A stretch of DNA of 64,000 nucleotides from Escherichia coli (GTDB lineage: Bacteria; Pseudomonadota; Gammaproteobacteria; Enterobacterales; Enterobacteriaceae), in assembly GCF_001677475.2 (NCBI RefSeq), contig NZ_CP015229.1, one strand, 5' to 3'. Under the pieces are notes generated by a model, which was given only the letters and a program-made list of their open reading frames with translations, ran no database searches and was not told where the DNA came from. Below are positions 9,557 through 34,397 of the stretch, in pieces (the stretch's first letter is position 1; every line of letters starts with the position of its first letter). A program made the position numbers and the translations under genes.

Positions 9557-10747
9557 ATGATGAAAACTGTTAATGAGCTGATTAAGGATATCAATTCGCT
9601 GACCTCTCACCTTCACGAGAAAGATTTTTTGTTAACGTGGGAACAGACGCCAGATGAACTGAAACAAGTACTGGACGTTGCCGCAGCATTAAAAGCACTG
9701 CGTGCTGAAAACATCTCAACCAAAGTCTTTAATAGTGGATTAGGTATTTCCGTATTCCGCGACAACTCCACCCGTACCCGCTTCTCTTATGCTTCCGCGC
9801 TTAACCTGCTCGGCCTTGCACAGCAAGATCTCGACGAAGGCAAATCACAAATCGCTCACGGCGAAACCGTGCGTGAAACCGCCAATATGATCTCCTTCTG
9901 CGCCGATGCCATCGGTATTCGTGACGATATGTATCTGGGCGCAGGCAACGCTTATATGCGTGAAGTTGGCGCTGCACTTGATGACGGCTACAAGCAGGGC
10001 GTACTGCCGCAGCGTCCGGCTTTAGTGAACCTTCAATGCGATATTGACCACCCGACTCAGTCAATGGCTGACCTCGCATGGTTACGTGAACACTTTGGTT
10101 CGCTGGAAAACCTGAAAGGTAAAAAAATCGCCATGACCTGGGCCTACTCCCCAAGCTATGGCAAACCGCTCTCTGTACCACAAGGTATCATCGGCCTGAT
10201 GACTCGCTTCGGTATGGATGTCACCCTGGCCCATCCGGAAGGCTACGACCTGATCCCGGATGTCGTTGAAGTCGCTAAAAACAATGCTAAAGCCTCCGGC
10301 GGTAGCTTCCGTCAGGTCACCAGCATGGAAGAAGCCTTCAAAGACGCAGACATCGTTTATCCGAAGTCATGGGCACCTTACAAAGTGATGGAAGAGCGTA
10401 CTGAATTGCTGCGTGCGAACGACCACGAAGGCTTAAAAGCACTGGAAAAACAGTGTCTGGCACAGAACGCGCAACACAAAGACTGGCATTGTACTGAAGA
10501 GATGATGGAACTGACCCGTGATGGCGAAGCCCTGTACATGCACTGCCTGCCAGCTGATATCAGCGGCGTATCCTGTAAAGAAGGTGAAGTGACTGAAGGC
10601 GTATTCGAAAAATACCGTATCGCAACCTACAAAGAAGCCAGCTGGAAGCCTTATATCATCGCCGCGATGATCCTGTCCCGTAAATACGCCAAACCAGGTG
10701 CACTGCTCGAGCAACTGCTGAAAGAAGCGCAAGAACGCGTGAAATAA
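9557..10747 (+). CDS. ygeW: YgeW-type carbamoyltransferase (aspartate/ornithine carbamoyltransferase fold)
   Basis: 396 aa, N-terminus MMKTVNELIKD; contains the carbamoyl-phosphate-binding STRTR motif. Confidence 0.88.
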   Translation: MMKTVNELIKDINSLTSHLHEKDFLLTWEQTPDELKQVLDVAAALKALRAENISTKVFNSGLGISVFRDNSTRTRFSYASALNLLGLAQQDLDEGKSQIAHGETVRETANMISFCADAIGIRDDMYLGAGNAYMREVGAALDDGYKQGVLPQRPALVNLQCDIDHPTQSMADLAWLREHFGSLENLKGKKIAMTWAYSPSYGKPLSVPQGIIGLMTRFGMDVTLAHPEGYDLIPDVVEVAKNNAKASGGSFRQVTSMEEAFKDADIVYPKSWAPYKVMEERTELLRANDHEGLKALEKQCLAQNAQHKDWHCTEEMMELTRDGEALYMHCLPADISGVSCKEGEVTEGVFEKYRIATYKEASWKPYIIAAMILSRKYAKPGALLEQLLKEAQERVK

Positions 10748-10753
10748 CCCCTC

Positions 10754-10775
10754 GGGCCGATCAGCTGGTCGGCCC
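10754..10775 (+). terminator. hairpin GGGCCGA-tcagctgg-TCGGCCC after ygeW
   Basis: Inverted repeat read directly; followed by TCTATTTCC. Confidence 0.4.
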
Positions 10776-10804
10776 TCTATTTCCAGAGGCCAAAAGGATA
10801 GGAT

Positions 10805-12001
10805 ATGTCCGTTTTCTCATTGAAGATTGATATCGCCGATAACAAATTTTTCAACGGCGAAACATCACCGCTCTTTTCGCAAAGCCAGGCCAAACTGGCG
10901 CGCCAGTTCCACCAGAAAATAGCTGGTTATCGCCCAACACCGCTTTGTGCGCTGGACGATCTCGCAAACCTTTTTGGTGTGAAGAAAATTCTCGTCAAAG
11001 ACGAATCAAAACGATTCGGTCTGAACGCCTTCAAAATGCTCGGCGGTGCGTACGCTATCGCTCAATTATTGTGTGAAAAATATCATCTTGATATCGAAAC
11101 GCTGTCATTTGAGCACCTGAAAAATGCCATCGGCGAAAAAATGACCTTTGCGACCACCACCGACGGCAACCACGGGCGCGGTGTGGCATGGGCCGCTCAG
11201 CAACTCGGTCAGAACGCGGTGATTTACATGCCGAAAGGTTCTGCTCAGGAACGCGTTGACGCCATTCTGAACCTCGGTGCCGAGTGCATCGTCACGGATA
11301 TGAACTATGACGATACCGTTCGCCTGACCATGCAACACGCGCAGCAGCACGGCTGGGAAGTGGTACAGGACACGGCATGGGAAGGTTACACAAAAATCCC
11401 AACCTGGATCATGCAAGGCTACGCAACACTGGCAGATGAAGCCGTCGAGCAAATGCGTGAAATGGGCGTAACCCCGACGCACGTTCTGCTGCAAGCCGGT
11501 GTCGGTGCAATGGCCGGTGGTGTGCTGGGTTATCTGGTCGACGTCTACAGCCCGCAAAATCTGCACAGCATTATTGTTGAACCTGACAAAGCTGACTGTA
11601 TTTATCGCTCTGGCGTCAAAGGCGACATCGTCAACGTTGGCGGTGATATGGCCACCATCATGGCAGGCCTGGCCTGTGGCGAACCTAACCCGCTGGGGTG
11701 GGAAATCCTACGTAACTGCGCCACCCAATTCATCTCCTGCCAGGACAGCGTTGCCGCATTAGGTATGCGCGTACTGGGTAATCCGTACGGCAACGATCCA
11801 CGCATCATCTCCGGTGAATCTGGCGCTGTCGGTTTGGGCGTTCTCGCGGCGGTTCATTATCACCCGCAACGTCAAAGCCTGATGGAAAAACTGGCGCTGA
11901 ACAAAGATGCCGTAGTGCTGGTTATCAGCACTGAAGGCGACACCGACGTGAAGCACTACCGCGAAGTTGTCTGGGAAGGCAAACACGCTGTAGCACCTTA
12001 A
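10805..12001 (+). CDS. ygeX: diaminopropionate ammonia-lyase (PLP-dependent)
   Basis: 398 aa; PLP-dependent fold; conserved position after ygeW. Confidence 0.88.
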   Translation: MSVFSLKIDIADNKFFNGETSPLFSQSQAKLARQFHQKIAGYRPTPLCALDDLANLFGVKKILVKDESKRFGLNAFKMLGGAYAIAQLLCEKYHLDIETLSFEHLKNAIGEKMTFATTTDGNHGRGVAWAAQQLGQNAVIYMPKGSAQERVDAILNLGAECIVTDMNYDDTVRLTMQHAQQHGWEVVQDTAWEGYTKIPTWIMQGYATLADEAVEQMREMGVTPTHVLLQAGVGAMAGGVLGYLVDVYSPQNLHSIIVEPDKADCIYRSGVKGDIVNVGGDMATIMAGLACGEPNPLGWEILRNCATQFISCQDSVAALGMRVLGNPYGNDPRIISGESGAVGLGVLAAVHYHPQRQSLMEKLALNKDAVVLVISTEGDTDVKHYREVVWEGKHAVAP

Positions 12002-12058
12002 TCACCCTATTGGAACTACTCCCTGCAAAACGGGGAGTAAAAAATCTGGAGAAAAATA

Positions 12059-13270
12059 ATGGCTAAGAATATTCCATTCAAACTGATTCTTGAAAAAGCA
12101 AAAGATTACCAGGCGGACATGACTCGCTTCCTGCGCGATATGGTTGCGATCCCCAGCGAAAGCTGCGACGAAAAACGCGTAGTACATCGTATTAAAGAAG
12201 AGATGGAAAAAGTCGGCTTCGATAAAGTTGAAATCGACCCGATGGGTAACGTTCTCGGCTATATCGGCCACGGCCCGCGTCTGGTGGCAATGGACGCTCA
12301 TATTGATACCGTCGGCATTGGCAACATCAAAAACTGGGACTTCGATCCGTACGAAGGCATGGAAACTGATGAGCTGATCGGTGGTCGCGGTACTTCCGAC
12401 CAGGAAGGCGGCATGGCATCTATGGTTTATGCCGGTAAAATCATTAAAGACCTCGGTCTGGAAGATGAATATACCCTGCTGGTTACCGGTACGGTGCAGG
12501 AAGAAGACTGCGACGGTCTGTGCTGGCAGTACATTATTGAACAATCCGGCATTCGCCCGGAATTTGTGGTCAGTACCGAACCAACCGACTGCCAGGTATA
12601 CCGTGGTCAGCGCGGTCGTATGGAAATTCGCATTGATGTTCAGGGTGTTAGCTGCCACGGTTCTGCACCAGAACGCGGTGATAACGCCATTTTCAAAATG
12701 GGGCCGATTCTTGGCGAATTACAAGAACTGTCCCAACGTTTGGGCTATGACGAATTCCTCGGCAAAGGCACCCTCACCGTTTCTGAAATCTTCTTCACAT
12801 CCCCAAGCCGTTGCGCTGTAGCAGATAGCTGCGCCGTCTCTATTGACCGCCGTCTGACCTGGGGCGAAACCTGGGAAGGCGCGCTGGACGAAATCCGCGC
12901 CCTGCCTGCAGTACAGAAAGCTAACGCGGTTGTTTCTATGTACAACTACGACCGTCCGTCCTGGACTGGCCTGGTTTACCCAACCGAATGCTATTTCCCG
13001 ACCTGGAAAGTGGAAGAAGATCACTTCACCGTTAAAGCACTGGTGAATGCCTACGAAGGTCTGTTTGGCAAAGCGCCGGTTGTTGATAAGTGGACCTTCT
13101 CAACTAACGGCGTATCTATCATGGGCCGTCACGGCATTCCGGTGATCGGCTTTGGCCCAGGTAAAGAACCTGAAGCGCATGCACCTAACGAAAAAACCTG
13201 GAAATCTCACCTGGTGACCTGTGCCGCGATGTACGCGGCAATCCCGTTAAGCTGGCTGGCAACCGAATAA
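12059..13270 (+). CDS. ygeY: M20-family peptidase / amidohydrolase
   Basis: 403 aa; M20/ArgE/DapE-like metal-binding motifs. Confidence 0.85.
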
Positions 13271-13287
13271 TTACTCTTCACTTATTC

Positions 13288-13312
13288 CCCTCCGGTTCGC
13301 CGGAGGGTTTTT
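13288..13312 (+). terminator. rho-independent terminator-like hairpin CCCTCCGG-ttcg-CCGGAGGG followed by TTTTT, immediately before hyuA
   Basis: 8-bp GC-rich stem, tetraloop and T-tract read directly. Confidence 0.6.
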
Positions 13313-13322
13313 GGAGTTTGCT

Positions 13323-14708
13323 ATGCGCGTATTGATCAAAAACGGCACTGTCGTTAACGCAGATGGACAAGCCAAACAGGATTTGCTGATTGAAAGCGGG
13401 ATTGTTCGCCAGTTGGGCAACAATATTTCGCCGCAGCTCCCGTATGAAGAAATTGATGCCACTGGCTGTTACGTTTTCCCTGGCGGCGTGGATGTCCATA
13501 CGCATTTCAATATTGATGTCGGCATCGCGCGCAGTTGTGATGATTTTTTTACCGGTACCCGCGCAGCTGCGTGTGGCGGTACAACAACCATTATTGACCA
13601 TATGGGATTTGGCCCAAACGGCTGTCGGTTACGCCATCAACTGGAGGTTTATCGTGGCTATGCCGCCCATAAGGCGGTCATCGACTACAGCTTTCATGGT
13701 GTGATCCAGCACATTAATCACGCCATCCTCGACGAAATCCCTATGATGGTCGAGGAAGGGCTGAGCAGTTTTAAACTCTATTTAACCTATCAATACAAAC
13801 TCAACGATGACGAGGTTTTGCAGGCATTACGCCGTCTGCATGAATCCGGCGCGCTGACCACCGTGCACCCGGAAAATGATGCAGCTATCGCCAGCAAGCG
13901 GGCGGAGTTTATCGCCGCAGGGTTAACCGCGCCGCGCTATCACGCCTTGAGTCGCCCTCTGGAATGCGAAGCGGAAGCCATCGCCCGCATGATTAACCTG
14001 GCACAAATTGCCGGTAACGCCCCGCTCTATATCGTGCACCTGTCTAACGGCTTAGGTCTGGATTATCTGCGTCTTGCCCGTGCGAATCACCAGCCAGTCT
14101 GGGTTGAAACCTGCCCACAATATCTCCTGTTGGACGAACGCAGTTACGATACAGAAGATGGCATGAAGTTCATTCTTAGCCCACCGCTGCGTAACGTACG
14201 CGAGCAGGACAAACTGTGGTGTGGCATCAGCGATGGTGCGATTGATGTGGTGGCGACCGATCACTGCACCTTCTCGATGGCGCAACGCCTGCAAATTTCT
14301 AAAGGCGATTTCAGTCGCTGCCCAAATGGCTTACCCGGTGTGGAAAACCGCATGCAGTTACTGTTTTCCAGTGGCGTGATGACGGGACGTATAACACCGG
14401 AACGTTTTGTTGAATTAACCAGCGCAATGCCCGCCAGGCTGTTTGGCCTGTGGCCGCAAAAAGGGATATTAGCGCCCGGTTCCGATGGTGACGTGGTGAT
14501 TATCGACCCACGTCAGAGCCAACAAATTCAGCATCGCCATCTCCACGACAACGCCGACTACTCGCCCTGGGAGGGGTTTACCTGTCAGGGCGCGATTGTC
14601 AGAACATTATCCCGTGGTGAAACGATTTTCTGTGACGGCAGCTTTACAGGCAAAGCCGGGCGAGGTCGTTTCCTGCGACGCAAACCGTTTGTCCCTCCCG
14701 TGCTCTAA
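13323..14708 (+). CDS. hyuA: D-phenylhydantoinase / dihydropyrimidinase-family cyclic amidohydrolase
   Basis: Translation from MRVLIKNGTVVNADGQ; metal-dependent hydrolase motifs (GGVDVHTH); the supplied ORF starts 4 codons earlier inside the terminator. Confidence 0.88.
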   Translation: MRVLIKNGTVVNADGQAKQDLLIESGIVRQLGNNISPQLPYEEIDATGCYVFPGGVDVHTHFNIDVGIARSCDDFFTGTRAAACGGTTTIIDHMGFGPNGCRLRHQLEVYRGYAAHKAVIDYSFHGVIQHINHAILDEIPMMVEEGLSSFKLYLTYQYKLNDDEVLQALRRLHESGALTTVHPENDAAIASKRAEFIAAGLTAPRYHALSRPLECEAEAIARMINLAQIAGNAPLYIVHLSNGLGLDYLRLARANHQPVWVETCPQYLLLDERSYDTEDGMKFILSPPLRNVREQDKLWCGISDGAIDVVATDHCTFSMAQRLQISKGDFSRCPNGLPGVENRMQLLFSSGVMTGRITPERFVELTSAMPARLFGLWPQKGILAPGSDGDVVIIDPRQSQQIQHRHLHDNADYSPWEGFTCQGAIVRTLSRGETIFCDGSFTGKAGRGRFLRRKPFVPPVL

Positions 14709-14755
14709 CCACTGCCAGGGATCTATACACAATCAAGAATGATGAGTGAGGAAAA

Positions 14756-15688
14756 ATGAGTAAGAAAATTGTTCTCGCCCTGGGCGGGAATGCGCTGGGC
14801 GACGACCTGGCCGGACAAATGAAAGCGGTAAAAATTACTTCTCAGGCAATTGTTGATTTAATTGCCCAGGGACATGAGGTCATCGTCACTCACGGTAACG
14901 GGCCACAGGTGGGCATGATTAACCAGGCCTTTGAAGCTGCCGCAAAAACTGAAGCGCACTCGCCAATGCTGCCGATGTCTGTCTGTGTTGCCTTAAGCCA
15001 GGGCTATATTGGTTACGATCTACAAAACGCCTTAAGAGAAGAACTGCTTTCTCGTGGCATTAATAAACCTGTAGCAACGCTGGTTACCCAGGTCGAAGTC
15101 GATGCTAACGATCCGGCATTCCTCAACCCGACCAAGCCGATCGGTTCGTTCTTTACCGAGCAGGAAGCAGAGCAACTGACAAAACAGGGTTACACTCTGA
15201 AAGAAGATGCTGGTCGCGGCTATCGCCGTGTTGTTGCCTCGCCAAAACCGGTTGATATCATTGAAAAAGAAACGGTTAAAGCTCTGGTAGATGCAGGTCA
15301 GGTGGTGATCACCGTTGGCGGTGGTGGTATTCCTGTTATTCGTGAAGGTAACCATCTGCGTGGTGCCAGCGCGGTTATTGATAAAGACTGGGCCAGCGCC
15401 CGTTTAGCAGAAATGATTGATGCCGATATGCTGATCATTCTGACTGCGGTAGAAAAAGTGGCCATTAACTTCGGTAAAGAGAATGAACAGTGGCTCGATC
15501 GCCTGTCATTAAGTGATGCTGAACGCTTTATCGAAGAAGGTCATTTTGCGAAAGGTTCTATGCTGCCTAAAGTGGAAGCAGCCGCCTCGTTTGCTCGCTC
15601 TCGCGCAGGTCGTGAAGCACTGATTACCGTATTGAGCAAAGCGAAAGAAGGGATTGAAGGCAAAACCGGAACGGTGATTTGTCAGTAA
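14756..15688 (+). CDS. yqeA: carbamate kinase-like protein
   Basis: 310 aa; amino-acid kinase fold (MSKKIVLALGGNAL). Confidence 0.88.
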   Translation: MSKKIVLALGGNALGDDLAGQMKAVKITSQAIVDLIAQGHEVIVTHGNGPQVGMINQAFEAAAKTEAHSPMLPMSVCVALSQGYIGYDLQNALREELLSRGINKPVATLVTQVEVDANDPAFLNPTKPIGSFFTEQEAEQLTKQGYTLKEDAGRGYRRVVASPKPVDIIEKETVKALVDAGQVVITVGGGGIPVIREGNHLRGASAVIDKDWASARLAEMIDADMLIILTAVEKVAINFGKENEQWLDRLSLSDAERFIEEGHFAKGSMLPKVEAAASFARSRAGREALITVLSKAKEGIEGKTGTVICQ

Positions 15689-15694
15689 TTTAAA

Positions 15695-15727
15695 GGCCGG
15701 GTGGGTAATACCATCCGGCCATTTTCA
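15695..15727. terminator. bidirectional hairpin GGCCGGGTGG-gtaata-CCATCCGGCC between convergent yqeA and yqeB
   Basis: 10-bp stem (one G-U pair) followed by ATTTTCATTT. Confidence 0.6.
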
Positions 15728-15728
15728 T

Positions 15729-17354
15729 TTAAGCCACTTCCAGCACTTCTTTTGTCGCTTTAACGCCCTGATGCATCAACATCATTAACGCCTCAAGTAC
15801 GCCGCCGCCAATTGCCCGGGCTTTATCAGAAACGCTGGTGAAATCAGCCGTTTCACCACGTGGATCGATATCACCAATTTTAAAACCACCGACCACCGCC
15901 AGTCCGTCGTTCAACAAGCCACGCACCATCCCCGTCAACGGTGCTTTAATTTCATGCTCACCAATCCAGGCAATCACATCGCCCTCTTTCACCAGATCGC
16001 CTAATTTCACGTTGGATCGCATAATGCCTGCAGCAGGAGCACGGATCACCCGTCGGGTGGTATGCCCCATAATATTGCCGGGAACACCGGTATTCTCCTG
16101 CGCACAACCAGAGTAAATCACCTGACCGAGCCAGTGCCCGCGATTTGTTTCAATTACCGCGTGGCAATCCTTCCCAGCAGTAAAGCCCGGCCCAAGCGCG
16201 ATTGTTACTGGTGCCATGTCTGCCCGCGTACCCAAATTCTGTTTCGCCAGAATAGCGTCCACCACGCAAAGCGGTTTCAGTTCATCAAGCAATGAACAGG
16301 CGGGATCTACCATCACAGGGATGAATCCGCGTTCGGTAAGTTTCATCGCTTCCGCAGAGCTGGTTGCCAGGCGGGCAGTGACGCCTTCGACCGTCATTTC
16401 GCCATCGAACACGGCCTGGGCAAACGCCACGGTACAACGAATCACTGTCGGTTGTTCCACTTCCAGCATGATCACTTTAAAACCCGCATGATACAGACGT
16501 AGCGCCACACCACTGGCGATATCCCCCGCACCGCGAATCACCACCAGCTGGTGTCCGGAAGGATGAGAAGGTTTCATCATCAGCCCACCCGGCGCGTTAT
16601 TTTTCACCTGTAATATTTCTGCCAGCACGCTGATGGCGATCTCCTGCGGCGTTTCCGCACCTATGTTGTAACCAACGGGCGCATGTAAACGGGCAATATG
16701 TTCTTCAGCCACGCCTTTTTCACGAAGTTGACGCAAGAAAAGCTGAACCTTGCGACGACTTGCCAGCAACCCCAGCCATGCAATGGGCTGTTCAATGAGT
16801 TTGTCGAGGGCTTCACGATCCTGATTATTCGTGGCAATCAGGACAAAATTATCATGGCGAATATCCAGTGCTTCCACTGCCGCACCAAACGACTCAGCAT
16901 GGAGAAGCGTGGTTGATGGTGGAAATAATTCAGGATTAAGGCTTTCGCGATAAATATCGGCAACGGCAATTTCAAATCCTAATAGCGCCGCACTTTGGGC
17001 TATCGCCCGGTTGACATGCCCCGCGCCAATCAACACCAGACGAGGACGCATACCATGGACGCTGATAAACACGGACATTGCACCTCCACAATCTGACCCG
17101 ACAGCATCCACACCGTTACGAGCCATACGTCCATGGAATAATCGCGGCTTACGCTCCTGCAATGCCTGAAGCGACTCTTCAATCACCTTCCGCTCAACCA
17201 TTCCGCCACCAATTGTACCGACGATAGAGCCATCGGCGCGCACTAACATTTGTGCAGAATGGCGGGGAGTCGAGCCTCGGCTATCAACAATTTGCGCCAT
17301 CGCAAACGGACAATTTTGCTCTTCGAGTTTTGCAGCCTCTGTGAAAATATTCAT
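15729..17354 (-). CDS. yqeB: YqeB; XdhC/CoxI-like molybdenum-hydroxylase maturation protein (selenium-dependent molybdenum hydroxylase marker)
   Basis: 541 aa; XdhC-like accessory domains; partner of yqeC. Confidence 0.85.
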   Translation of the reverse strand: MNIFTEAAKLEEQNCPFAMAQIVDSRGSTPRHSAQMLVRADGSIVGTIGGGMVERKVIEESLQALQERKPRLFHGRMARNGVDAVGSDCGGAMSVFISVHGMRPRLVLIGAGHVNRAIAQSAALLGFEIAVADIYRESLNPELFPPSTTLLHAESFGAAVEALDIRHDNFVLIATNNQDREALDKLIEQPIAWLGLLASRRKVQLFLRQLREKGVAEEHIARLHAPVGYNIGAETPQEIAISVLAEILQVKNNAPGGLMMKPSHPSGHQLVVIRGAGDIASGVALRLYHAGFKVIMLEVEQPTVIRCTVAFAQAVFDGEMTVEGVTARLATSSAEAMKLTERGFIPVMVDPACSLLDELKPLCVVDAILAKQNLGTRADMAPVTIALGPGFTAGKDCHAVIETNRGHWLGQVIYSGCAQENTGVPGNIMGHTTRRVIRAPAAGIMRSNVKLGDLVKEGDVIAWIGEHEIKAPLTGMVRGLLNDGLAVVGGFKIGDIDPRGETADFTSVSDKARAIGGGVLEALMMLMHQGVKATKEVLEVA

Positions 17355-17401
17355 ACCAACCTCAATGGATATCCTTTCAGTAACCCGGAATACCCGGGCC
17401 G

Positions 17402-18172
17402 CTAATTCACAAATCTGCGCGCGATTGCAGGATGTTCTTGTATATCGCCCAGCCAGATTGCCTCTACGTTGTGTTGTTGCAGCGGTTGAAGGAGCTCGCT
17501 TTGCGCAATCGCATTCTCACATTGAGAAAAACGGTTAATGAACCAGACTCGCCGACAACCTTGCGGTACGTTTTTAAATGCGCCCTGAGGGTGGCGAACC
17601 AGCGCAACGAGATCGCTCAGTTGCAAGGTTGCATCAGGTGTTAACCCGGTAATATCAGCAAACTGCGACCAGCGATGGACATTTTCTGTGCTCACTTTCG
17701 CACCCAAAATATGTCCTCCCATCACAGCAATCACGCAGCAACTGCTTTTGGGTATGCAAGGTTCGTGCTCATCAGGCGCTTTTAACGGCATTCCACGCGA
17801 GCCATCTGCCTCAATGAGAATTACGTCACACTCTGGTCGTTGCACCAGTGCATCAATCGCTTCTGGCGTAAATCCCTGCACTTTTCCCTGGTTCGCTTTC
17901 CAGCTGTGAAAACAAAATGAAATGGGGGATGTAAGAGACGTATGAGGAAGCATGGCGGGATCACGACAGAAAACCACGGGCCAGTGAGACGTTGGCATAA
18001 ACATATGTGTCGTCGTAGTGATTAACACACGCCTGCCGCTAGCCTGGAGTAGTTCTGCCAGCCAAAAAAGCAAGCTGGTTTTCCCCCCAGCACCAACAAC
18101 AGAAATCACAGTGGGACGTTTCTGCGCGCCTAAATCAATGAATAATGCCGATGGGTCAACTATACTTTTCAC
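17402..18172 (-). CDS. yqeC: YqeC; P-loop protein (second selenium-dependent molybdenum hydroxylase marker)
   Basis: 256 aa; Walker A-like VVGAGGKTS near the N-terminus. Confidence 0.85.
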   Translation of the reverse strand: MKSIVDPSALFIDLGAQKRPTVISVVGAGGKTSLLFWLAELLQASGRRVLITTTTHMFMPTSHWPVVFCRDPAMLPHTSLTSPISFCFHSWKANQGKVQGFTPEAIDALVQRPECDVILIEADGSRGMPLKAPDEHEPCIPKSSCCVIAVMGGHILGAKVSTENVHRWSQFADITGLTPDATLQLSDLVALVRHPQGAFKNVPQGCRRVWFINRFSQCENAIAQSELLQPLQQHNVEAIWLGDIQEHPAIARRFVN

Positions 18173-18274
18173 GAGTCTTTATGACCTCTCTGGGATAAAT
18201 TACCCCCAACTTAATCCATCAGGAAGTAACGCAATTATCAGGCGTTATTAGCCCCTATAAATAATGGAACCACT

Positions 18275-18853
18275 ATGTCAGCCATCGACTGTATAATTAC
18301 CGCTGCCGGATTATCATCAAGAATGGGGCAATGGAAAATGATGTTACCCTGGCAACAGGGAACAATTCTTGATACAAGTATCAAAAATGCGTTGCAGTTT
18401 TGTAGCCGAATTATTTTAGTCACCGGCTATCGTGGTAATGAACTGCACGAACGTTATGCGAACCAGAGCAATATCACTATTATACACAACCCAGATTATG
18501 CGCAGGGTTTACTAACATCAGTAAAGGCCGCAGTACCCGCGGTAAAAACAGAATATTGTTTTCTCACCCACGGTGACATGCCTACCCTCACCATCGATAT
18601 TTTTAGAAAAATCTGGTCGTTACGAAATGATGGCGCAATACTGCCACTCCATAATGGCATTCCCGGCCATCCGATTTTAGTGTCAAAGCCATGCCTGATG
18701 CAGGCAATCCAGCGTCCCAATATCACCAATATGCGTCAAGCACTCCTTATGGGAGAACATTATTCCGTCGAAATAGAAAATGCAGAAATAATTTTAGATA
18801 TTGATACTCCAGACGACTTTATTACAGCGAAAAAAAGGTATACTGAAATTTAG
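18275..18853 (+). CDS. mocA: molybdenum cofactor cytidylyltransferase
   Basis: 192 aa; MobA-like nucleotidyltransferase (N-terminus ITAAGLSSRMG). Confidence 0.88.
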   Translation: MSAIDCIITAAGLSSRMGQWKMMLPWQQGTILDTSIKNALQFCSRIILVTGYRGNELHERYANQSNITIIHNPDYAQGLLTSVKAAVPAVKTEYCFLTHGDMPTLTIDIFRKIWSLRNDGAILPLHNGIPGHPILVSKPCLMQAIQRPNITNMRQALLMGEHYSVEIENAEIILDIDTPDDFITAKKRYTEI

Positions 18854-19087
18854 AAAACGTAGTTAAACGATTGCGTTCAAATATTTAACCCTTCCAGTTC
18901 TCTTTATCATAATGATAAGGAATCACTGATTTTGAGAAAAGAGAAAAAGTGATAAATGGGTTGCCAATAATAATTTCCAGGAGTGATTTTAATTCTCATT
19001 TGGCACCTGTGAGTTCATTCACAAAAAGCCCCTAAGTTTCGAGCCGCCTCACATTTTTTTATATTTCCCGCCAAACCTGGCAAGAGT

Positions 19088-19103
19088 GGTGCGATTGTTG
19101 CTC
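19088..19103 (+). promoter_or_regulatory. candidate sigma54 promoter upstream of ygfK: TGGCaagagtgGTGC
   Basis: GG and GC at canonical spacing, about 72 nt upstream of ygfK; -12 element GTGC, so imperfect. Confidence 0.3.
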
Positions 19104-19174
19104 TATCCCCCTAAACCACCGGATTTCTCAACACCGGTCACTCAATGATATCTGTATAAGCTAAGGAGAGGGTT

Positions 19175-22100
19175 ATGGGGGATATTATGCGTCCCATTCC
19201 GTTTGAGGAACTTTTGACGCGCATATTTGATGAATACCAACAACAACGCTCAATCTTTGGTATTCCCGAGCAACAGTTTTACTCACCCGTAAAAGGTAAA
19301 ACTGTTAGCGTCTTCGGTGAAACCTGTGCCACTCCCGTCGGCCCTGCCGCTGGCCCGCACACGCAGCTCGCGCAAAATATTGTCACTTCCTGGCTGACTG
19401 GCGGACGCTTCATCGAACTAAAAACCGTCCAAATTCTTGACCGCCTGGAGCTGGAAAAGCCCTGTATCGATGCCGAAGACGAGTGCTTTAACACCGAATG
19501 GTCTACCGAATTTACCCTGCTTAAAGCCTGGGATGAATACCTCAAAGCCTGGTTTGCCCTGCACCTTCTCGAAGCGATGTTCCAGCCTTCTGATTCCGGT
19601 AAATCGTTCATCTTTAATATGAGCGTCGGTTACAACCTCGAAGGTATTAAGCAACCGCCGATGCAACAGTTCATCGACAATATGATGGACGCATCTGACC
19701 ATCCGAAATTCGCTCAATATCGCGATACACTGAATAAATTACTCCAGGATGACGCATTTTTAACCCACCACGGATTGCAGGAAAAGCGCGAAAGCTTGCA
19801 AGCCTTACCCGCTCGCATCCCCACCAGCATGGTGCAGGGCGTCACCCTCTCCACCATGCACGGCTGTCCTCCGCATGAAATTGAAGCCATTTGCCGCTAC
19901 ATGCTGGAAGAAAAAGGGCTCAATACCTTTGTGAAACTCAACCCGACCTTACTGGGGTACGCGCGTGTTCGTGAGATCCTCGATGTCTGCGGTTTCGGTT
20001 ACATAGGCTTAAAAGAAGAGTCATTTGATCACGACCTCAAGCTGACGCAAGCGCTGGAAATGCTGGAACGCCTGATGTCACTGGCAAAAGAAAAATCACT
20101 CGGCTTTGGCGTAAAACTGACTAACACTCTCGGCACCATCAACAATAAAGGCGCACTGCCTGGTGAAGAGATGTATATGTCAGGCCGTGCGCTGTTCCCG
20201 CTCTCCATCAATGTTGCAGCAGTTCTCTCTCGCGCCTTTGACGGCAAACTGCCCATTTCTTATTCCGGTGGTGCCAGTCAGCTGACTATCCGCGATATTT
20301 TTGATACTGGTATTCGCCCTATTACTATGGCAACCGACCTGCTGAAACCTGGCGGCTATCTGCGCTTAAGTGCCTGCATGCGCGAGCTGGAAGGCTCCGA
20401 CGCCTGGGGGCTTGACCATGTTGACGTCGAACGACTGAACAAACTGGCAGCAGACGCGTTAACCATGGAATACACCCAGAAACACTGGAAGCCAGAAGAG
20501 CGTATTGAAGTGGCAGAAGACCTGCCGCTGACCGACTGCTACGTTGCCCCCTGTGTTACTGCCTGCGCTATCAAGCAAGATATTCCGGAATACATCCGTT
20601 TGCTTGGCGAACATCGCTATGCTGACGCGCTGGAACTCATCTACCAACGCAACGCCCTGCCCGCCATTACCGGTCATATTTGCGATCACCAGTGCCAATA
20701 CAACTGTACCCGCCTGGATTACGACAGTGCGCTGAATATCCGTGAACTGAAAAAAGTCGCGCTGGAAAAAGGTTGGGATGAATATAAGCAACGCTGGCAC
20801 AAACCAGCCGGTTCTGGTTCACGCCATCCGGTTGCCGTGATTGGTGCAGGTCCGGCGGGTCTGGCAGCAGGTTACTTCCTTGCCAAAGCGGGCCATCCGG
20901 TTACGCTGTTTGAACGCGAAGCCAATGCGGGCGGCGTGGTGAAAAATATCATTCCTCAGTTCCGTATTCCTGCAGAGTTAATTCAGCACGATATCGATTT
21001 TGTTGCCGCTCACGGCGTGAAATTTGAGTATGGCTGCTCACCCGATCTGACCGTTGAACAGTTAAAAAATCAGGGCTTCCACTATGTCCTGATTGCCACC
21101 GGCACTGATAAAAATAGCGGTGTGAAACTGGCGGGCGACAACCAAAATGTCTGGAAATCACTCCCCTTCCTGCGTGAATACAACAAGGGCACAGCGCTCA
21201 AGCTGGGCAAACATGTGGTCGTTGTCGGGGCGGGTAACACGGCAATGGACTGCGCTCGTGCGGCGTTACGCGTTCCAGGCGTAGAAAAAGCAACGGTCGT
21301 TTACCGTCGTTCACTGCAAGAGATGCCAGCATGGCGCGAAGAGTATGAAGAAGCGTTGCACGACGGTGTGGAGTTCCGTTTCCTGAATAATCCGGAACGT
21401 TTCGATGCTGATGGCACCTTAACCTTGCGCGTTATGTCGCTTGGCGAACCTGATGAAAAAGGTCGTCGCCGTCCGGTTGAAACCAACGAAACAGTAATAC
21501 TGCATGTAGACAGCCTGATCACCGCCATTGGTGAACAGCAGGATACTGAAGCCCTGAATGCGATGGGCGTGCCGCTGGACAAAAACGGCTGGCCAGACGT
21601 CGACCATAATGGCGAAACTCGTCTGACTGACGTCTTTATGATCGGCGACGTACAGCGCGGACCATCCTCCATTGTCGCTGCTGTCGGAACCGCGCGTCGG
21701 GCGACCGATGCCATCCTTAGTCGGGAAAATATCCGTTCCCACCAGAGCGATAAATACTGGAATAACGTCAATCCGGCGGAAATCTATCAACGCAAAGGCG
21801 ATATCTCTATCACCCTGGTGGATAGCGACGATCGTGACGCGTTTGTCGCCCAGGAAGCCGCACGCTGCCTTGAATGTAACTACGTTTGCAGCAAGTGTGT
21901 GGATGTCTGCCCGAACCGCGCCAACGTATCCATTGCGGTCCCTGGCTTCCAGAACCGTTTCCAGACGCTGCACCTCGATGCTTACTGTAACGAATGCGGC
22001 AACTGCGCTCAGTTCTGTCCGTGGAACGGTAAACCGTACAAAGACAAAATCACCGTCTTCAGCCTGTCGCAAGACTTTGATAACAGCAGCAACCCTGGCT

Positions 22101-22273
22101 TCCTTGTGGAAGATTGCCGGGTACGAGTACGTCTGAATAACCAAAGCTGGGTGTTAAGCATCGACAGCGAAGGTCAGTTCAACAACGTACCACCGGAGCT
22201 GAACGATATGTGCCGCATCATTAGCCATGTCCACCAGCATCATCATTATCTGCTGGGCCGTGTGGAGGTGTAA
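19175..22273 (+). CDS. ygfK: large Fe-S / FAD-NAD(P) oxidoreductase (putative selenate reductase-type subunit YgfK)
   Basis: 1032 aa; Rossmann GxGxxG motifs ([24 protein letters not shown]) and C-terminal cysteine clusters; continuous frame with no internal stop. Confidence 0.88.
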   Translation: MGDIMRPIPFEELLTRIFDEYQQQRSIFGIPEQQFYSPVKGKTVSVFGETCATPVGPAAGPHTQLAQNIVTSWLTGGRFIELKTVQILDRLELEKPCIDAEDECFNTEWSTEFTLLKAWDEYLKAWFALHLLEAMFQPSDSGKSFIFNMSVGYNLEGIKQPPMQQFIDNMMDASDHPKFAQYRDTLNKLLQDDAFLTHHGLQEKRESLQALPARIPTSMVQGVTLSTMHGCPPHEIEAICRYMLEEKGLNTFVKLNPTLLGYARVREILDVCGFGYIGLKEESFDHDLKLTQALEMLERLMSLAKEKSLGFGVKLTNTLGTINNKGALPGEEMYMSGRALFPLSINVAAVLSRAFDGKLPISYSGGASQLTIRDIFDTGIRPITMATDLLKPGGYLRLSACMRELEGSDAWGLDHVDVERLNKLAADALTMEYTQKHWKPEERIEVAEDLPLTDCYVAPCVTACAIKQDIPEYIRLLGEHRYADALELIYQRNALPAITGHICDHQCQYNCTRLDYDSALNIRELKKVALEKGWDEYKQRWHKPAGSGSRHPVAVIGAGPAGLAAGYFLAKAGHPVTLFEREANAGGVVKNIIPQFRIPAELIQHDIDFVAAHGVKFEYGCSPDLTVEQLKNQGFHYVLIATGTDKNSGVKLAGDNQNVWKSLPFLREYNKGTALKLGKHVVVVGAGNTAMDCARAALRVPGVEKATVVYRRSLQEMPAWREEYEEALHDGVEFRFLNNPERFDADGTLTLRVMSLGEPDEKGRRRPVETNETVILHVDSLITAIGEQQDTEALNAMGVPLDKNGWPDVDHNGETRLTDVFMIGDVQRGPSSIVAAVGTARRATDAILSRENIRSHQSDKYWNNVNPAEIYQRKGDISITLVDSDDRDAFVAQEAARCLECNYVCSKCVDVCPNRANVSIAVPGFQNRFQTLHLDAYCNECGNCAQFCPWNGKPYKDKITVFSLSQDFDNSSNPGFLVEDCRVRVRLNNQSWVLSIDSEGQFNNVPPELNDMCRIISHVHQHHHYLLGRVEV

Positions 22274-34046: not shown

Positions 34047-34397
34047 TTGCATCCCTTTCATTTAATGAGTTATGTCTTCTCAAATTTCGCGATGCAATAA
34101 ATGGGCATATATTAGGTAGCATGGCCGATTTAATTATAATTTTGCGACTGAGTTCAAATTATTGCCCCTCAATCTGTGCCGCTTTCATTATTTCAACATT
34201 GCCGACCAAAAGAGAGCTAACCAGATAAAAACGATTAAATACGAGAGTGCGACATGCCAGAATGATTAATGAAATATCAATATGAGAAAATTACAGATAA
34301 TTCCATTGTCAGGTTCTCTTCTCATTTTCGTGGTTTAACCACGATTATGTGATTGCCTCCGCAATTCCTGTCTCTAACTCCCCTTCCTCGCAAAAAC

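Follow-up and report, generated by a model that had tools for sequence, protein, structure and literature searches.

A conserved sigma-54 site in front of the ygfK operon of Escherichia coli and candidate sites for its regulation

The mocA–ygfK intergenic region and its sigma-54 site

The window, that is, the whole 64-kb stretch of Escherichia coli DNA that we have analyzed, contains the genes mocA (ygfJ; 18275-18853) and ygfK (19175-22273, plus strand), both read in the same direction. Their limits are taken from a list of open reading frames; those of ygfK are also found in the RefSeq annotation of matching E. coli genomes. The ygfK gene is the first of the ygfK-ssnA-ygfM-xdhD operon, and a role in isoxanthine reduction has been described for it (10.1101/2025.05.19.654654). 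The features discussed below lie in the 321 nt region between mocA and ygfK. The 601 bases around the finding have 95-99% identity to 5,161 complete E. coli genomes. Identity to K-12 MG1655 is 98% over the intergenic region and complete over positions 19033-19190.

A predicted sigma-54 (-24/-12) promoter of ygfK, GTGGTGCGATTGTTGCT, is found at 19086-19102 on the plus strand. Its GG is at 19088-19089 and its GC at 19100-19101, it ends 72 nt before the ygfK ATG (19175), and transcription would start at about 19112-19113. The sequence has the GG-N10-GC spacing within the consensus TGGCAC-N5-TTGCW, with TGG and TTGCT present. Its -24 half has two mismatches to the consensus, T for C and G for A.

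In order to score this site we have used a weight matrix obtained from 130 sigma-54 sites detected by ChIP-seq (Tables 1 and 2 of Bonocora et al., PMC4591121), from which the sites of the cluster itself were excluded. The score of GTGGTGCGATTGTTGCT is 14.2 bits, which corresponds to the 47th percentile of the 130 sites, approximately their median. Only three sites in the window reach 14 bits or more with this matrix. They are the top three of about 128,000 positions on both strands: xdhA with 15.5 bits, ygeW with 14.8 and ygfK with 14.2. When the 321 nt intergenic region was shuffled 5,000 times, preserving dinucleotides, a site with at least 14.19 bits appeared with a frequency of 0.0008. The score of GTGGTGCGATTGTTGCT is within the range of bound sites and above chance.

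This site is not new. Letter for letter, it is the sequence which Bonocora et al. 2015 list as OS31, a sigma-54 ChIP-seq peak (PMC4591121). The entry for OS31 gives a peak centre at 3014019, a FAT of 26, the plus strand, the gene b2878 (ygfK) and 62 nt from the predicted start to the gene, and its EcoCyc status is "P" (predicted) (PMC4591121). Our strain is not K-12, but 17-mer, strand and the 62 nt distance are the same, and nothing substantial differs. With its FAT of 26, OS31 has rank 9 among 42 intergenic sense sites, and its occupancy was detected in vivo, in K-12 in M9 (PMC4591121). In the same work, ygfK is one of five genes in which an rpoN-dependent microarray signal and a ChIP peak coincide; it is cited among the genes which respond to rpoN deletion or overexpression (PMC4591121). 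Genomic SELEX with the sigma-54 holoenzyme in vitro lists the spacer between ygeV and ygeW; ygfK is absent. The ygfK sigma-54 promoter is already catalogued, both in the 2015 ChIP-seq study and in EcoCyc. As a discovery, the promoter adds nothing to what is found in ChIP-seq, EcoCyc and iModulon work.

Conservation of the site and choice of register

A scan of a genome collection with the first 400 residues of YgfK has given 80 loci. They are found in Escherichia, Citrobacter, Klebsiella, Trabulsiella, Kluyvera, Cedecea, Serratia, Edwardsiella, Morganella, Erwinia, Aeromonas, Vibrio, Photobacterium and Shewanella, and also in some Betaproteobacteria and Spirochaetes. The analysis includes the 79 loci with enough upstream sequence, and a site was counted when it had 9.5 bits or more and was located no further than 200 nt upstream of ygfK. 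Such a sigma-54 site is present in 74 of the 79 loci, versus 4.3% of background 200-nt chunks taken from the same loci. The end of the motif lies 50-155 nt ahead of the ygfK start in these 74 loci, and the conserved site always has the register of 19086-19102. Its range goes from Escherichia as far as Vibrio and Aeromonas, and includes some Betaproteobacteria. The position of the site before ygfK is held both in loci where mocA lies upstream and in those where the divergent yqeC/yqeB do.

These loci provide 72 distinct sequence contexts, in which T-G-G and T-T-G-C have 1.9-2.0 bits; conservation is partial in the spacer, and the flanks have practically 0 bits. Contact bases with almost 2 bits between flanks with almost none are the signature of selection on the sigma-54 contacts. 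Judging from these alignments, a real and deeply conserved sigma-54 promoter is found in front of the ygfK operon, with its sigma-54 contact bases under purifying selection. The initial annotation of this DNA had proposed such a promoter before ygfK, and its identity to OS31 and its conservation bear this out.

The -24 element is TGGT in many Enterobacteriaceae (Escherichia, Citrobacter, Klebsiella and relatives; loci L004-L028 and others). The canonical TGGC is found in Edwardsiella (CTGGCGTGATTGTTGCT), Morganella, Aeromonas and the Vibrionaceae. The off-consensus TGGT has been retained for a long time, although the E. coli site has a high ChIP occupancy.

Dozens of chance matches with 9-12 bits are present in the window, so it may be asked if GTGGTGCGATTGTTGCT is just one more of them, resembling the sigma-54 consensus by coincidence and without any biological role. 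The shuffle probability of 0.0008 speaks against this, and the ChIP-seq peak found in vivo, together with the conservation in 74 of 79 loci, effectively refutes it: the probability of such a coincidence is negligible.

The register requires some discussion. The initial annotation located the element at 19088-19103, about 72 nt upstream of the operon, but the bases that it quoted are TGGCaagagtgGTGC. This 15-mer does exist and has the right spacing, with GG at 19079-80 and GC at 19091-92, separated by 10 nt. However, it is found at 19078-19092, shifted some 10 nt to the left, with its end 82 nt from the ATG; the distance of 72 nt is that of GTGGTGCGATTGTTGCT. A better-than-chance sigma-54 site is indeed present at the coordinates that were given, while the bases that were quoted belong to a different register, with GTGGTGCGATTGTTGCT 9 nt downstream. 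This quoted register, CTGGCAAGAGTGGTGCG (19077-19093, plus strand), is a weak sigma-54-like match which overlaps the real site.

Two of the checks proposed in that annotation, weight-matrix scoring and conservation, favor GTGGTGCGATTGTTGCT and not the bases quoted. With the 130-site matrix the quoted register only has 8.3 bits, as compared with 14.2 for the register of 19086-19102. Such a value corresponds to the 1st percentile of the 130 ChIP sites; the window has 58 sites with the same score or a better one, and sites with at least 8.32 bits appear in the shuffled sequences with a frequency of 0.054. A smaller matrix, obtained from 38 intergenic ChIP-seq sites, gives scores that are too similar to tell the two registers apart, 11.2 bits for the quoted one and 12.2 for that of 19086-19102, so the distinction comes from the 130-site matrix and from conservation. 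Using the smaller matrix, the quoted register has 11.1, 8.6 and 7.3 bits in the three Escherichia loci (L001-L003). At the equivalent position in all the other loci, the score is less than 0 bits. The register of 19086-19102 is the one kept in 74 of 79 loci, while the quoted one is limited to Escherichia.

Nevertheless, CTGGCAAGAGTGGTGCG might be functional by itself, or might be a second site in tandem, starting about 9 nt further upstream. Besides the correct spacing of GG and GC it has a good -24 half, CTGGCAAG, which is also that of nac, the 38-site matrix gives it 11.2 bits, and the resolution of ChIP-seq is too coarse for an offset of 9 nt. On the other hand, MEME picked the register of 19086-19102 in the ChIP study, and not the quoted one, whose score with the larger matrix is shared or exceeded by so many other sites in the window. 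The quoted register is missing outside Escherichia and is already mutated in E. coli E69 and in E. whittamii. Moreover, the occupancy of two overlapping sites would be mutually exclusive. A functional role for CTGGCAAGAGTGGTGCG appears very unlikely: it is probably an overlapping, non-functional pseudo-site.

Other elements of the intergenic region

The elements around the promoter have been located using an alignment of 18 Enterobacteriaceae and promoter-anchored scans. One of them is a perfect palindrome, TTATCAtaaTGATAA, at 18904-18918 (no strand assigned), centred at about -201 from the predicted start. It is the sole match in the window with no mismatches. When up to two mismatches are allowed, ten matches are found in the window. 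Five of them are upstream of four sigma-54 promoters, those of xdhA, ygeW, ygfK and ygfT: besides TTATCAtaaTGATAA, there is one at 3396-3410 for xdhA (-151), two for ygeW at 9235-9249 (-234) and 9264-9278 (-205), and one at 34274-34288 for ygfT (about -199). Of 74 loci, 69 have the core of the palindrome, TATCAnnnTGATA (up to one mismatch), and its position in them is -180/-181, -200/-202 or -213/-214. In this promoter-anchored scan the distance classes are approximately whole helical turns apart. This conservation of helical phase, and the recurrence of the palindrome upstream of xdhA, ygeW and ygfT, make it a candidate YgeV site.

The ygeV gene (7302-9080, minus strand) is the only one in the cluster which codes for a sigma-54 enhancer-binding protein; Pfam detects PAS, Sigma54_activat (E 2e-70), AAA_lid_14 and HTH_8 domains. 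In other genera, tblastn detected no homologue of YgeV at 3 kb or less from ygfK. The YgeV iModulon includes ygfK-ssnA-ygfM-xdhD together with xdhABC, ygeWXY-hyuA, ygfT and uacT (PMC10602906, PMC12132413). The idea of a coordinated YgeV regulon, to which the initial annotation wished to add weight, is already published in this form and our results are consistent with it. Among the papers that we have read, direct genetic dependence on YgeV is given for ygfT only; that of ygfK we infer. In work on EHEC, YgeV is presented as an indole-related regulator (IsrR). We have found no description of a YgeV binding motif in the literature searched, which did not include EcoCyc, RegulonDB or Iwadate and Kato 2019. 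Only these by-products may be new: a putative operator for YgeV, the way in which it is phased, and the constant position of the CRP site described below.

We have also considered if the palindrome might be a Fur box. The E. coli copy contains ATAATGATAA of the Fur consensus used for comparison, but its spacer is not conserved in other genera. Only TATCA…TGATA is conserved, so we have rejected this reading. A further sequence, AAACGATTGCGTT, is found at 18865-18877, just past the mocA stop codon, and its conservation extends to Citrobacter and Klebsiella indica besides Escherichia. From its similarity to the PurR box, we take it to resemble the half-palindrome of a LacI/PurR-type operator.

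A perfect CRP consensus (TGTGA-N6-TCACA), TGTGAgttcatTCACA, is found at 19008-19023 (no strand assigned), centred at -96.5. It is the only match in the window with no mismatches. Most loci from the Enterobacterales have a CRP site at -96.5/-97.5; in Aeromonas and the Vibrionaceae it is absent. The CRP targets detected by genomic SELEX include ygfK, the ygeV<>ygeW spacer and the ygfT<>ygfU spacer (Shimada et al. 2011, PMC3105977). Glucose represses uric-acid degradation in wild-type E. coli, and a Crp site has been reported in the ygeV-ygeW spacer (10.1101/2025.05.19.654654). The involvement of CRP at ygfK is suggested by the site itself, by the SELEX data and by the glucose repression of the pathway. 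We have also observed a CRP site with one mismatch at 9392-9407, at -76.5 of the ygeW promoter. The CRP positions in ygfK and ygeW (-96.5 and -76.5) differ by 20 bp, approximately two helical turns.

Two more conserved elements are found in this region. One of them, TTCGAGCCGCCTCACA (19038-19053, no strand assigned), contains a CRP-like half-site and is centred at -66.5, 30 bp or three helical turns from the CRP site. Its TCACA is invariant in the 18 Enterobacteriaceae, and many loci have the element at -66.5/-67.5. It might be recognized by a factor other than CRP, or be an additional weak site for CRP itself. The counterpart of this element in Erwinia and Pantoea is TGCGAAnnnnnGTCACG. The other one is a conserved block, GAGTGATTTTAATTCTCATT, at 18981-19000 (no strand assigned), approximately -122, which is nearly invariant in the 18 Enterobacteriaceae and matches neither the palindrome nor the IHF and CRP sites. 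No IHF consensus (WATCAANNNNTTR) was found between palindrome and promoter when up to one mismatch was allowed.

Downstream of the promoter, the predicted 5' untranslated region (19112-19174, plus strand) would have about 62 nt, in agreement with Table 1 of Bonocora et al. It contains a possible small hairpin, ACCGG…CCGGT (19118-19138), and a ribosome binding site, AAGGAG (19163-19168). The CCGG arms of the hairpin recur in other Enterobacteriaceae. A Rfam scan of 18700-19400 for leader RNAs and riboswitches only gave a meaningless miRNA match (E = 0.92).

A ChIP-seq peak does not always correspond to an active promoter: Bonocora et al. caution that a site bound by sigma-54 need not be productive, and many of their sites may not be (PMC4591121). 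Sigma-54 might thus be bound but idle in front of ygfK, with expression driven by a nearby CRP-dependent sigma-70 promoter or by read-through from mocA, which is co-directional and ends 321 nt upstream. Two features could suggest such a promoter, the CRP site with its perfect consensus (19008-23) and a hexamer, TATATT, at 19060-65. However, our scan for sigma-70 promoters in 18800-19250 only gave two matches at chance level, neither of them between the CRP site and ygfK. The TATATT hexamer would place CRP near -57, not at the canonical -61.5, and is conserved no further than Escherichia and Citrobacter. Both variants of this explanation are difficult to reconcile with a sigma-54 motif and an upstream palindrome which are conserved with fixed phasing across bacterial orders, including genomes without mocA in which the upstream gene is divergent. 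The rpoN-dependent expression signal reported for ygfK also argues against an idle site. We consider this explanation improbable, although less so than a functional CTGGCAAGAGTGGTGCG, and prefer an active sigma-54 promoter at 19086-19102.

Sigma-54 sites of the cluster and proposed regulation

The initial annotation counted ygfK as the third operon of the cluster with a sigma-54 promoter. This is correct as far as ygfK is concerned, yet it is an undercount, as ChIP-seq lists five sites. The xdhA promoter, CTGGCGTAAATCTTGCC (3528-3544, plus strand), with 15.5 bits, is identical to OS29. The ygeW promoter, CTGGCACAGTTATTGTT (9450-9466, plus strand), has 14.8 bits, and OS30 is a one-base variant of it. 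The ygfT site, TATGCCCATTTATTGCA (34092-34108, minus strand), has been read from the sequence and is one base off OS32. A further site, TGAGCACGAACCTTGCA (17755-17771, minus strand), is found inside yqeC and directed towards yqeB; it is an exact match to IS34 and is conserved across loci. Together with OS31 these make five known sigma-54 sites in the cluster, not two.

Sites of the IS34 type are kept as xxxGCAyGAACCTTGCA in about 45 loci, approximately 375-420 nt upstream of yqeB. In genomes without yqeC the site is intergenic, 36-190 nt upstream of yqeB. The sigma-54 sites of ygeW and ygfK are separated by 9,636 nt in the window (9458 to 19094) and by 9,816 nt in K-12, according to the coordinates of Bonocora et al. 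About 180 nt of this interval must therefore be missing from our strain.

The promoters of xdhA, ygeW and ygfT are similar to that of ygfK: they have the same -24/-12 architecture, belong to the YgeV iModulon and have an upstream site resembling TTATCA-N3-TGATAA. Those of ygeW and ygfT are also reported CRP SELEX targets, like ygfK. On the other hand, only ygfK has TGGT instead of TGGC at -24, and only in ygfK are both the palindrome and the CRP site perfect. Its ChIP occupancy is the highest of the four, with a FAT of 26 versus 11, 3 and 3 in the group formed by xdhA, ygeW and ygfT.

A similar arrangement is known in the prpBCDE operon of E. coli and Salmonella, whose promoter depends on sigma-54 and PrpR and is under positive control by CRP. 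As proposed for ygfK, this sigma-54 promoter serves a catabolic operon and has an enhancer-binding protein of its own, with CRP sites between enhancer and promoter which result in catabolite repression. The two systems differ in the member of the activator family and in its ligand. The prpB sigma-54 site is present in Table 1 of Bonocora et al. (PMC4591121). The DioR regulon of the Clostridiales (PMC6615313) resembles our cluster in its genes, with homologues of ygeW-ygfK-ssnA-ygeY, yqeB and yqeC-ygfJ, and in having predicted sigma-54 sites and a dedicated enhancer-binding protein. It differs from the cluster in its phylum, in the enhancer-binding protein and in gene order. A distinct upstream motif has been described for DioR (PMC6615313).

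From all these results, GTGGTGCGATTGTTGCT is very likely a sigma-54-dependent promoter (ygfKp) of ygfK-ssnA-ygfM-xdhD, the genes for that half of the anaerobic uric-acid pathway in which reduction and dearomatisation take place. The sigma-54 RNA polymerase would contact GG at 19088-89 (-24) and GC at 19100-01 (-12). The closed complex would wait at ygfKp, since its opening would require an AAA+ enhancer-binding protein. This activator is probably YgeV, which is encoded 10 kb upstream. Located about 200 bp upstream and on the same helical face, YgeV would open the closed complex, and transcription would start near 19112-13, leaving a leader of about 62 nt. As to where YgeV binds, we slightly favor TTATCAtaaTGATAA, at about -201, and its counterparts upstream of ygeW and ygfT (about -200) and of xdhA (-151). 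We are somewhat more inclined to believe that cAMP-CRP at -96.5 bends the intervening DNA, or aids activation in some other way, which would tie expression to the absence of glucose. Such bending, or other positive input from this position, would account for catabolite repression.

A broader and more tentative suggestion, whose chances we place a little below even, is that the 15-bp palindrome TTATCA-N3-TGATAA is a YgeV operator that has not been described before, with a position which varies only by whole helical turns in genera as far from Escherichia as Vibrio, Aeromonas and Shewanella, and that in the Enterobacterales an in-phase CRP site (-96.5 in ygfK, -76.5 in ygeW) replaces IHF in its usual architectural role.

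In the anaerobic uric-acid pathway of gut bacteria, the ygfK-ssnA-ygfM-xdhD operon codes for the reduction of uric acid to isoxanthine and for the steps of ring dearomatisation and cleavage. Probiotic E. coli strains are being engineered with this pathway in order to lower urate. The sites described here give the experimenter precise bases to mutate or replace: those of the sigma-54 promoter and of the likely YgeV and CRP sites. If the suggested operator and the role of CRP are true, the urate pathway would require a YgeV signal plus cAMP.
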